Source: a virus
Lineage: Duplodnaviria > Heunggongvirae > Uroviricota > Caudoviricetes
IMG/VR virus record: IMGVR_UViG_2695420699_000007
DNA: 24,270 bases
Direction: 5' to 3' (one strand)
The stretch's first letter is position 1, and each line of letters begins with the position of its first letter. The position numbers are program-made. Below, one piece after another: positions 1 through 3,000 of the stretch.

Positions 1-3000
1 CAGATGGAAAAAATCACAACAGGTGTGTCATACACCACGTCAGCGGTGGGGACGGGATACTGGTTACTGCAGCTGCTGGACAAAGTCTCTCCGTCCCAGT
101 GGGTGGCAATAGGTGTGCTGGGAAGTCTGCTGTTTGGCCTGCTGACGTATCTGACTAACCTGTATTTCAAAATCAGAGAGGACCGGCGTAAGGCGGTGCG
201 GGGAGAGTAAAGTGATGAAGAAAAAATACGAACTGGTTGTTAAAGGGATAAATAATTACCCGGATAAGATTACTGTTACTGTGGCACTGGAAATTGGTGG
301 GTATCCGTCACTGTTGTTGCCAGATGTGGCGATTAGTCTTGACCGTACTGAAGGTGCCACGCTGGAGTTTTACGAAGCTGAGGCGAAAAAGCAGGCGAAG
401 CAGTTTTTCATGGATGTTGCTGCCGGGTTATGTGAAGGGGATGGTCCGTTGCCGGAAAAGCGGCCCATCATTTTAGAGGCGCAGGATGTGTTGATAACCT
501 ACAGAGGAAAACTACCGGGAATAATTACTGGTTCTCTGAAGACTCCACCGCTGGCCTGAAGACTTAATATATCCAGGGATTTGAAATCGATAAACCCTGA
601 TAAATATCCATGAACGCAAAAATCAGATACGGCCTGTCGGCTGCCGTTCTGGCGCTGATTGGTGCAGGGGCGTCTGCGCCTGAAATCCTCGACCAGTTTC
701 TTGATGAAAAGGAAGGTAACCACACCACAGCATACCGTGATGGTGCGGGTATCTGGACCATCTGCCGTGGAGCCACCCGGGTGGATGGTAAGCCTGTTAT
801 TCCTGGCATGAAGCTGTCGAAGGAAAAATGCGACCGGGTTAACGCCATTGAGCGTGATAAGGCGCTGGCATGGGTGGAGAAAAACATCAGAGTGCCACTG
901 ACCGAACCCCAGAAAGCGGGGATTGCGTCATTCTGTCCGTACAACATTGGCCCCGGTAAGTGTTTCCCGTCGACGTTTTACAGACGGATTAATGCTGGTG
1001 ACCGCAGGGGAGCATGCGAGGCGATTCGCTGGTGGATTAAGGACGGTGGCAGAGACTGCCGTATTCGCTCAAACAACTGCTACGGTCAGGTCTCACGGCG
1101 TGACCAGGAGAGCGCGCTGGCGTGCTGGGGAATTGACAGATAAGTAGAATATTTTGCTGAAAAATGCGGTTTGCTCACACGGGCGGATAACACGAAATCC
1201 TGCGAACTGGCAAAAACTAAGTGAATAAAAGTAAAACCCCGTTTGTTGGCCGCAAGCGGGGTTTTGTGTTTCCTGACTCCGGAAAAGTCAAAGGAGAAAG
1301 TGTGTTTGATTTTAGCAAACTGATTCGGGAGATTCGAATGATGGCTGAAAAATTATCCACCTGGAAGTTCATCCTTATCTGGCGGGTGTTTGTGATTATG
1401 GCTTCCGGTTATTTCATTGGTCAGATACGCTGGTGGTGAAATGAACCGCGTACTGTGCGTGGTCATCATTGCCCTGCTGGTGGCCTGTGGTGCGCTTAGT
1501 CTGGGGCTGAATCATTACCGTGATAACGCCATAACCTACAAAGAGCAGCGCGATAAAAAAGTCAGTGAGCTGGAGCTGGCAAATGCAACCATTACTGATA
1601 TGCAGCAGCGCCAGCGTGATGTTGCTGCACTTGATGCCAGATACTCGAGGGAATTAGCCGATGCGAGAGCTGAAAATGAAACTCTGCGCGCTGATGTTGC
1701 CGCTGGTCGTAAGCGCCTGCGGATCAACGCCACCTGCCCCGGTACCGTGCGTGAAGCCACCGGCACCTCCGGCGTGGATAATGCAACCGGCCCCCGACTG
1801 GCAGACACCGCTGAACGGGATTATTTCATCCTCAGAGAACGGTTGATGACAATGCAGAAGCAGCTGGAAGGGGCGCAGGACTATATCCGCACTCAGTGTA
1901 CTAAGCAGGCTTTTTATTATCCGGAGGATGTATGAAGAAATTACAGGTAACGGTAAAACCTTTTCAGGGAACAATTCCGTTCCGTGTTTTGCAACATGGC
2001 CGTGTTCTGCTTGAAGAGGTGTTCAGAGGTAAATGCACTGAATGTTATTCACGAACATATGAAGTGAATGCCACGCATGAAGAATTCACCGTTGAGTGTG
2101 TGATGAATACTGATAAATGCCGAATGGTATCCGCTGAATTACAGCCAGTGTGTTGAGCGACCTTATTATCCATGCGCGGTATTGTCGCCGTATTCCTGCA
2201 TTAACAGAGACCGCAGCCCGACAGGGAGACTCCTCTGCGAGAGTGTGCGGGGATAATCAAAAACGATACACACCGGGGTTTACCGCGTAAACGGAGCGCG
2301 GCGTTCTCCCCTCATGGTCGCCCGTCCGGTGCGATGGTGGAAGAAACTGGAATCTGTTCAATAAAAAAACTGCCGTGTTGGAGTCACAGCAGTAATGTAC
2401 TGATTGGGTAGAAGATTATTATTGTTATGCTTTATTTTTATTCTATATGGCTGATTATTTCAATTCGGAATTAATACAGCTAATGTCTGTGATTTTTTAT
2501 AAATTCAGCAATATAAAGAAATAGTTATATGAACAGCCATCGCAGAGCATACTGTGTATCATTCTTTTTTATAGTCAACTGACGGGCATATTTTATGTCT
2601 GCTGCCAGCTCCCGGCGGCAAGATTCAATGACCCACGCAGAAAAATTACCTGAACCTTTCAGGTCAAGAGCGATGTTAATTTGTTCAATTATCTGGTTTG
2701 GAAATCGGATGTTGCGGGTTGTTGTTCTGCGGGGCCGGTTTTTCGATGACATTTTCTTTCCTCTGGTGACAAGCTATATGGCGAGGATTTTTCATGGCTG
2801 TGCTTCGTACGTTACCGGGCAGAATCAAAACTCTGAACACCCGGCGGGTGAATATTCTGAAGGGTGAACAGCGTCGTGTCAGTGGCAGTGCCCGGGTTTC
2901 CCTCAAACGTCGTATCTGGCGGAGGGATGCCGGACACTGTTGTCTCTGTAGACGCGTGGTTGACCTTTGTGACAGTGAACTCGATCACCGCATTGCACTT

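Follow-up and report, generated by a model that had tools for sequence, protein, structure and literature searches.

A GC-rich hairpin and a gene for a 45-residue membrane protein travel together as one conserved unit, found here in the lysis region of IMG/VR virus record IMGVR_UViG_2695420699_000007 (Caudoviricetes), a 24,270-nt stretch of DNA referred to as the window. The unit, which comprises the hairpins and the small open reading frame (ORF), covers ~207 nt (1233-1439) between the endolysin gene R and the spanin gene Rz. Elsewhere it occurs after six endolysin families, between the baseplate genes gpV and gpW, and in tail modules; therefore, it is a mobile late-operon cassette and not a fixed lysis component. 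The surrounding core is an ordinary lysis cassette of the phage 21 type in a lambda-like prophage related to Shiga toxin (Stx) phages. A second added gene, between the holin gene S and R, encodes a protein of the YdfR family. The explanation preferred here joins three readings, namely an ordinary core with separately acquired, AT-richer genes lodged in the gaps between core genes, a YdfR protein that modulates RNA turnover, and a mobile hairpin-ORF cassette expressed only late; the combination is considered probable by a modest measure.

Structure and conservation of the hairpin-ORF unit

The unit has three parts:

1233-1271, plus strand: hairpin H1, resembling an intrinsic terminator, with a U-rich tail and a preceding A-tract; 5' end of the unit (from folding and covariation)
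1269-1297, plus strand: hairpin H2, weaker, pairing UUUCCU with the Shine-Dalgarno AGGAGA (from per-sequence folds)
1302-1439, plus strand: gene for a 45-aa small protein, phrog_6632, with a GTG start (phrog_6632 E=6.5e-28, residues 28-72 of the 72-aa frame)

Read from its 5' end, the unit runs from an A-tract through a GC-rich, terminator-like hairpin with its U-tract and a second hairpin that covers the Shine-Dalgarno (SD) sequence to a GTG or TTG start and 45 codons that end in TGG TGG TGA. In the window, the H1 stem occupies 1233-1265 (13-14 bp, predicted ~-21 kcal/mol) and the U-rich tract continues to 1271, which gives H1 the layout of an intrinsic (Rho-independent) terminator, a GC-rich stem-loop and then UUUUGUGUUU. 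An automated terminator scan of the window did not list H1. A preliminary description of this DNA had placed the hairpin at 1243-1275; the hairpin exists, and its stem begins and ends further upstream than was proposed. The SD sequence AAGGAG at 1291-1296 is covered by H2, and the GTG at 1302 follows five nt later.

The 45-aa frame aligns end to end with phrog_6632. A charged helix conserved at the N-terminus of the protein (DFSKLIRE.R.M.EKL) leads into a single transmembrane (TM) segment that ends in RWW, with a hydropathy peak over residues 21-42. The small, single-TM ORF had been proposed before, and it is genuine, with one hydrophobic segment, conservation and purifying selection. Two starts had been offered for it; the GTG at 1302 is the conserved form, and the ATG at 1338 is internal, as is the one at 1341. 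The start used in RefSeq, GTG 1221, was rejected, given that the resulting 72-aa frame traverses H1 and is closed upstream in Salmonella phage SPN3UB and other homologues. Every homologue keeps the Met14 encoded by the ATG at 1341, with GGGAG nine bases ahead of it; the ATG at 1338 is present in the window as well (region 1326-1343). At codon 28 (1383-1385), in the hydrophobic segment, the window allele has Arg at a position where most homologues have Leu, a variant found in six loci.

Conservation was assessed in 178 loci with 34 protein variants, 45 distinct leaders and at least 12 genera. A GC-rich hairpin with a U-rich tail precedes the ORF in every locus and every distinct leader, and the ORF is intact in 177 of the 178 loci. 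The ORF begins with GTG in 161 loci and with TTG in 16; one locus has no start codon, and ATG is used in 0. The median ratio of nonsynonymous to synonymous divergence (dN/dS) is 0.19, and the N-terminal Leu and Arg codons (codons 7 and 9) are swapped synonymously. Because of this low ratio and the synonymous exchanges in the N-terminal part, the whole 45-residue frame is taken to be translated. Synonymous divergence is halved in codons 2-20, which, together with the invariant Met14, may reflect an internal start or a constraint at the RNA level.

The stems of H1 vary in sequence yet pair, with 94.9% of alignment cells paired and compensatory double changes at 10 of the 12 base pairs. In a control, none of 500 shuffles gave pairing as high, and slid registers drop to 39-63% paired. 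When leaders are folded individually, an H2-like hairpin overlaps or abuts the SD sequence in nearly all of them; in the alignment, 83% of the H2 cells pair, and independent compensatory events are few. RNAalifold recovered only H1 and no consensus structure reaching into the coding region. Salmonella phage SPN3UB, which has a different holin, also carries the arrangement between its lysozyme and Rz genes: a hairpin with an altered upper stem, a U-tract, an SD sequence, a GTG start and a 45-codon ORF with 67% protein identity, for which many of the DNA differences are synonymous.

The hairpin travels with the ORF into contexts other than lysis; the ORF is not noise, and the hairpin is more than a terminator for the endolysin gene. 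The contrary proposal, that the small ORF is spurious and the hairpin merely terminates the endolysin transcript, could draw on the absence of the ORF from the annotation of many records and on the ease with which short ORFs arise by chance. It is contradicted by the conservation data, that is, by a frame kept intact across the genera sampled, by the dN/dS and the closure of the other frames, and by the hairpin that accompanies the ORF wherever it goes, such that it is regarded as extremely improbable.

The end of the small ORF, TGG TGG TGA (window 1431-1443), gives an SD-like GGUGGUGA just ahead of the Rz ATG, which starts 1 nt past the stop codon. The identical ending precedes gpW and other next genes elsewhere, with the next start 1-20 nt past the stop. 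These junctions bear on a proposal in which the unit acts chiefly as RNA, with H1 as a partial terminator or 3' stabilizer that tunes how strongly upstream genes are expressed relative to downstream ones, an ORF that serves for reinitiation of translation, and a peptide of secondary importance. The proposal would account for H1 as the best-conserved structural feature, for the SD-like end before the next ATG, for the low synonymous divergence in codons 2-20, and for the constant location of the unit inside operons. However, purifying selection on the amino-acid sequence is clear, the N-terminal motif is kept through synonymous codon changes, and an ORF that served only for coupling would need no conserved TM segment. 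An RNA function as the chief one is therefore held to be improbable.

In the literature and databases searched, no description of the hairpin and ORF as a unit was found; in kind, the unit is moron-like. The 45-aa protein, too, was found described nowhere in that literature. Surveys of Stx phages and of spanins leave the extra cassette genes undiscussed. Rfam gives no match at E<=1 on either strand of window positions 1-3000, and Pfam at E<=1 gives none for the 45-aa protein, DUF2730 included. The protein matches none of the holin families of Pfam or PHROG.

Genomic contexts and control of the unit

An endolysin gene immediately precedes the unit in about 133 of the 178 loci, and six unrelated kinds of endolysin are found upstream of it: T4-lysozyme-like, GH108 with a peptidoglycan-binding domain, GH19, peptidase M15, CHAP and phrog_873. 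Soluble types that lack the signal-anchor-release (SAR) character are among them. Where a downstream gene was found for these endolysin-linked units, it encodes an inner-membrane spanin (i-spanin) of one of two families. A further 26 loci have the unit between gpV and gpW, and 10 have it in the tail region of Pseudomonas siphoviruses; in single loci, it follows a gpK-like tail protein K, a tail fibre, a tail assembly chaperone or Ant, or lies between internal virion proteins. Counted by protein variant, 16-18 of the 34 stand behind endolysins and 7 behind gpV. A translated search located the ORF in Salmonella phage SEN34 and E. coli phage Rac-SA53, where it separates the genes for baseplate spike and wedge, and, in Pseudomonas phage YMC11/02/R656, in the tail region. 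Loci from further genera came from scanning IMG/VR and species-representative genomes, namely Citrobacter, Edwardsiella, Yersinia, Sodalis, Brenneria, Pantoea, Symbiopectobacterium, Providencia, Trabulsiella and Azoarcus.

Across these contexts, similarity begins at the A-tract before H1 and stops at the stop codon of the ORF. The GC content of the unit is 45%, versus 53-56% for S, R and Rz. The unit is dispensable, as it is missing from the E. coli K-12 prophage Qin, where R overlaps Rz. In the window, ~90 bases past the endolysin stop (1146-1237) are common to ~280 phage records without the hairpin-ORF unit; similarity to those records stops just ahead of the A-tract of H1, which sets the left boundary of the insertion.

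Insertion between genes that adjoin in relatives (R and Rz in Qin; S and R in phiSTEC1589) and a different base composition are traits of morons that are seen here. The further moron trait of an own promoter with a downstream terminator is not seen in the small-ORF unit, in which the hairpin is upstream. No conserved plus-strand promoter was found upstream of the unit, either in the flanks before the A-tract, which are unrelated between contexts, or by a consensus scan. The prophage might nonetheless express the small ORF as a classical moron, with a product such as an inner-membrane protein for superinfection exclusion like HK97 gp15. A small, single-TM protein of foreign base composition, inserted between genes adjacent in relatives, would suit this proposal, and the copy behind a tail assembly chaperone recalls the position of gp15 between the frameshifted tail chaperone and tape-measure genes. 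Yet the unit lacks a conserved upstream promoter, it has its terminator-like hairpin on the upstream and not the downstream side, and it combines a weak start with an occluded ribosome site. The layout of HK97 gp15 is the opposite (strong SD, ATG, downstream terminator) and its sequence is dissimilar, so a classical moron product is judged to have a low probability.

A hydrophobic peptide with an occluded SD sequence also invites comparison with type I toxins. In such a module, RNA structure and a cis-antisense RNA that starts inside the ORF and ends at a bidirectional H1 would restrain the toxin mRNA. With its conserved A-tract, H1 could also terminate minus-strand transcription, and a minus-strand promoter-like site (1424 to 1395, CTGACC-18-CATAAT) lies inside the ORF and points at H1. 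Minus-strand sites occur in 42 of 82 distinct units versus ~20% of shuffles, with 1 match on the plus strand, and low synonymous divergence in codons 2-20 would fit as well. However, the sites are weak (9/12 matches), their positions are specific to lineages, and several lineages are without them. The supposed toxin mRNA would have no promoter of its own, Rfam gives no small RNA match, and the unit is always codirectional within late operons and never free-standing. A toxin module of this kind is considered quite improbable.

The preferred explanation takes the unit as a late-only cassette, always co-oriented within the late operon. Because H1, the occluded SD sequence and the weak start all point one way, the terminator-like hairpin, the covered ribosome site and the non-AUG start would together keep a membrane-active, tail-anchored peptide scarce. 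In a lambdoid phage with Q antitermination, its synthesis would be confined to terminator-resistant late transcription. The peptide would then act at the inner membrane late in infection via the conserved 20-residue N-terminal helix, as an accessory to envelope-breaching functions that is not required for lysis, and the terminal TGG TGG TGA could double as an SD-like site for the next gene. An accessory, lysis-related role may be indicated by the dominant position between endolysin and i-spanin genes across endolysin families.

The lysis cassette and its YdfR-family gene

The cassette genes around the unit are as follows:

4-210, plus strand: class II holin (pinholin), phage 21 type, short form (PF04971 E=1.4e-32; phrog_9876/phrog_20 holin; RefSeq 'class II holin family protein')
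215-559, plus strand: YdfR-family (DUF1327) protein, 114 aa, short form (PF07041; phrog_406; RefSeq 'YdfR family protein')
610-1143, plus strand: SAR-type, T4-lysozyme-like endolysin, R21-like (PF00959 E=2e-24)
1441-1935, plus strand: Rz i-spanin (PF03245 E=7.6e-50; phrog_13)
1661-1846, plus strand: Rz1 o-spanin lipoprotein, embedded in the +1 frame of Rz (PF06085 E=1.7e-21; lipobox-like LVVSAC read from the translation)

The region from 4 to 1935 is a phage-21-type lysis cassette with a pinholin, a SAR endolysin and Rz/Rz1, as the preliminary description had recognized. In Pfam profile searches, PF04971, PF00959, PF03245 and PF06085 are all matched across it, with membrane behavior being predicted, and the GenBank and RefSeq annotations of relatives agree with these identities. 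The holin, 114-aa ORF, endolysin, hairpin, small ORF and Rz that had been listed are all present at or near the positions first given to them. Read from the translation, the endolysin has a Gly/Ala-rich hydrophobic stretch at its N-terminus (YGLSAAVLALIGAGASAP) and an E35/D44/T50 triad (E-8-D-5-T), with the spacing typical of R21-like SAR endolysins; its homologue in the H-19B record is labelled 'similar to bacteriophage 21 R protein'. Translation of a long holin form would begin at an ATG 9 nt upstream of position 1 (M-Y-Q-M-E-K, seen in the related locus L001, 2995-3006), and the N-terminal extension M-Y-Q has no basic residue.

The arrangement had been thought a departure from the normal one, but it is the commonest for this cassette type in E. 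coli prophages, and Qin has essQ-ydfR-rrrQ. Over positions 1-2400, the window shares 98.6% identity with the lysis region of the Stx2a phage Stx2_EH2201 and of a series of Stx2c phages, and 97.5% with phage H-19B. Of 5426 complete E. coli genomes, 1320 contain at least 80% of this 2.4-kb stretch. The cassette, of the Stx-phage and Qin type, is already known and common, as is YdfR, and annotations exist for both extra genes, as a YdfR family protein and as a hypothetical protein (phrog_6632). Many records leave the small ORF unannotated, and the GenBank record of H-19B does so for both extra genes. The GC content of the three add-on ORFs is 42-47%, versus the 53-56% of S, R and Rz.

A relationship of the 114-aa protein to DUF1327 and YdfR had been guessed from the sequence, and it is borne out by a match to PF07041 of 155.4 bits (gathering cutoff 25; E=4.7e-46, residues 1-112) and by the name of the identical protein in RefSeq. 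The protein has no TM segment, a maximum 19-residue hydropathy of 1.18 and an isoelectric point of ~5.5; it is a soluble late protein, most likely cytoplasmic. It is 47% identical to YdfR of K-12 over residues 1-74, and conservation in the family is confined to the core columns of the first ~75 residues. In an AlphaFold2 (AF2) model that omits the C-terminal 40 residues, the core consists of strands 5-14, 18-27 and 38-43 and a helix, 50-73, with a predicted local distance difference test (pLDDT) score of 70-89. The family is narrow, with 56 clusters in an exhaustive search of 1.84 billion representative proteins and named matches from Escherichia and Shigella. Two giant proteins that match YdfR residues 13-55 were treated as spurious, being beta-rich repeat proteins. 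Among solved structures, nothing specific for YdfR was found by fold or by sequence, the best match in a Protein Data Bank search with a YdfR profile being not below E=0.67. NCBIfam and PADLOC gave zero matches for YdfR, the small protein, the 74-aa ORF described below or related proteins.

In Qin, the genes essQ, ydfR, rrrQ and rzpQ follow one another with overlapping stop and start codons, and the 114-aa gene of the window occupies the ydfR slot. This slot between holin and endolysin is mosaic, in that forms of 114/116 aa and 176/183 aa share the core and differ by a coiled-coil module, which the 114-aa form lacks at its C-terminus. The modules of the slot are the DUF1327 core, a linker (EKRPIILEAQ...GSLKTPP) and the coiled coil, found in several combinations (for example, L012 2714-3271; P0006, P0013, P0113 and P0186), and one 185-aa relative has the coiled-coil module without the DUF1327 core. 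A YdfR-family gene sits behind either of two holin families, the S21-type PF04971 or the HP1-type PF16080. The most divergent DUF1327 member precedes tail gene L in a lambda-like tail cluster, and in phiSTEC1589, S directly adjoins R with no YdfR-family gene between them.

Most of the experimental evidence on YdfR comes from one recent study, in which the K-12 protein was shown by two-hybrid assay and co-purification to bind the N-terminal catalytic half (residues 1-598) of RNase E, for which the first 72 residues of YdfR suffice (PMC13232886, 2026). The protein also co-purifies with DNase-resistant nucleic acid, that is, RNA, and its overproduction has no growth or lysis phenotype and little effect on the transcriptome (PMC13232886). 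As cited in that work, a genetic screen from 2014 flagged ydfR for envelope integrity (PMC13232886). The region of 47% identity between the 114-aa protein and K-12 YdfR coincides with the 72-residue RNase E-binding region. By analogy with its homologue, the most likely binding partners of the 114-aa protein are RNA, the catalytic half of RNase E, or both. A role as a late accessory protein that would bind RNase E or RNA is, on the same analogy, ranked above one as a lysis-timing factor, and the protein would act as a modulator of RNA turnover late in infection, outside the hole-forming machinery.

The gap between R and Rz has other occupants in other phages. Cassettes of the 933W type hold Ant and an unrelated, 48-aa single-TM ORF there, and in PhiR12_2 and the 933W type, the gap holds Ant and/or other small single-TM ORFs (L006 3338-3484; L007 2852-2983 and 2655-2837). 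These ORFs, phrog_4906 (43-48 aa; 276 phage records) and a 60-aa ORF, are unrelated to the 45-aa family; for the 48-aa ORF of the 933W type, a test of homology failed.

The preliminary description had suggested from their placement that the two extra genes have a role in lysis timing or regulation. In full, this proposal makes both of them dedicated regulators, with YdfR as a partner of the pinholin or of the N-terminus of the SAR endolysin and the 45-aa protein as an antiholin, a releasin or a regulator of spanins. The YdfR gene is co-oriented and tightly packed between holin and endolysin, with gene overlaps in Qin, and the unit stands right after the endolysin gene in ~75% of loci, with six endolysin families, and right before i-spanins of two families. 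In the 276 phage records just mentioned, the slot before Rz is taken by an unrelated small TM ORF, and the invariant Met14 with GGGAG 9 nt upstream could provide a holin-like dual start. A precedent is the Mu releasin gp25, which is membrane-tethered, has its gene close to that of the endolysin and functions alongside diverse endolysins (PMC9239132). Against this, placement is weak evidence because both families also occur outside lysis cassettes, in tail and baseplate modules. It is weakened further by near-identical cassettes and close relatives that miss one gene or the other (phiSTEC1589 and Qin), and by the data on YdfR, whose known partner is RNase E and whose overexpression gives no growth phenotype. 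There is no similarity to holin, antiholin or DUF2730 families, and the associated endolysins include soluble, non-SAR types. A core lysis role is disfavored because of the baseplate and tail copies, the close relatives without the unit, and the lack of a family match; dedicated lysis-timing regulation by both genes is regarded as unlikely.

Several points weigh against the preferred explanation of an ordinary core, a YdfR modulator of RNA turnover and a mobile late-only cassette. Neither gene has a demonstrated function in any phage. RNase E binding is known for the K-12 allele only, by two-hybrid assay and pull-down, and overexpression barely alters the transcriptome. The strong bias of the unit toward endolysin-spanin junctions, with unrelated endolysins, could mean a dedicated lysis function, which the preferred explanation plays down. 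The sample is dominated by E. coli prophages, so that locus counts overstate the lysis context. The conservation of H2 is only suggestive, the absence of a promoter rests on inspected, variable flanks and a crude consensus scan, and in SEN34-like phages, simple insulation fits poorly with a strong terminator within the gpV-gpW operon.

A bolder reading is put forward only tentatively and thought unlikely as it stands. The unit would represent a new class of self-contained, promoterless cassettes that hop between the late operons of proteobacterial phages, equipped with a two-hairpin 'double lock' and supplying a ribosome site to the next gene. The peptide would serve as a general effector or regulator of the final steps of infection, independent of endolysin family, such as a miniature releasin, an antiholin or a spanin gatekeeper, and YdfR would be a phage-borne modulator of RNase E that tunes the stability of late transcripts.

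What is new is the recognition of the hairpin and small ORF as one conserved, horizontally mobile unit, with a covariation-supported leader, an obligatory non-AUG start and a strong preference for endolysin-spanin junctions, whatever the endolysin family. If the peptide affects lysis, it would be a very widespread new player in the lysis pathway, Shiga-toxin phages included, in which lysis timing governs toxin release. If it has no effect on lysis, the unit would be a clean moron-like cassette with an inverted control layout. For YdfR, a testable hypothesis is gained, that of RNase E modulation in late phage development; the recent study left the phage context unconsidered (PMC13232886, 2026).

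A third add-on gene and other features lie downstream of the cassette:

1932-2156, plus strand: third add-on, a 74-aa Cys-rich ORF (orf74; phrog_2571 E=1.2e-28; hypothetical in RefSeq/GenBank)
2369-2393, minus strand: terminator-like hairpin, downstream of the cassette
2525-2752, minus strand: YlcI/YnfO (DUF3950) gene (from annotation)
2794-3159, plus strand: HNH endonuclease gene, adjoining terminase genes (from annotation)

The ATG of orf74 overlaps the stop codon of Rz (ATGA), its GC content is 42%, and it is present in only ~17 of 80 near-identical cassettes. The remainder of the window holds the HNH endonuclease, terminase, head genes and lambda-like tail genes.

Comparison with known systems

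The order of holin, YdfR-family gene, lysozyme and spanin is shared with essQ-ydfR-rrrQ-rzpQ of Qin and with the S-R-Rz regions of H-19B and Stx phages. Unlike the window, Qin has ydfR overlapping rrrQ and rrrQ overlapping rzpQ, with no hairpin or small ORF between them, and the YdfR allele of the window differs from that of K-12 in its C-terminal part. The window resembles phage 21 in the PF04971 holin family, the SAR endolysin with its E-8-D-5-T triad, and the embedded spanin pair. The lysis genes of phage 21 are contiguous, and its S71 antiholin extension is M-K-S, with a basic residue; the window adds three AT-richer ORFs and has the M-Y-Q extension without one. A natural, contiguous S-R junction was verified in phiSTEC1589 only.

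Among accessory lysis proteins, the Mu releasin gp25 (DUF2730) has 99 aa, an N-out/C-in topology and a 73-aa cytoplasmic domain (PMC9239132). Like Mu gp25 (PMC9239132) and P2 LysA, the 45-aa protein would be a membrane-tethered accessory; its gene lies just 3' of endolysin genes of different enzymatic classes, and it belongs to no known holin family. In contrast to gp25, it is only 45 aa long, has its hydrophobic segment at the C-terminus, shows no similarity and also occurs outside lysis cassettes. P2 LysA has four TM segments, and the 45-aa protein differs from it likewise in lacking similarity and in occurring outside lysis cassettes.

HK97 gp15 is reportedly one of the lambdoid morons, and it probably carries its own promoter; its record has a strong SD sequence, an ATG start and a terminator downstream. 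The unit is like such morons as a small single-TM gene of foreign composition, placed between late genes that are adjacent in relatives and found at several late-operon sites. It is unlike gp15 in its upstream hairpin, undetectable promoter, occluded SD sequence and GTG/TTG start; homology of the 45-aa family to gp15 was rejected, given that there is no sequence similarity.

At the left end of IS200, a terminator hairpin is said to block impinging transcription and a second stem-loop to hide the ribosome-binding site, such that little is made of a product that could do harm. The unit may follow the same double-lock logic, by analogy only. The two are unrelated in sequence and in cargo, a transposase versus a 45-aa membrane peptide, and the unit has no transposition machinery.

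Modulators of RNase E are already represented among phages by Dip of phiKZ and gp0.7 of T7. If the YdfR of the window binds RNase E as K-12 YdfR does, then it would be another late phage protein that acts on host RNA decay, like Dip and gp0.7.

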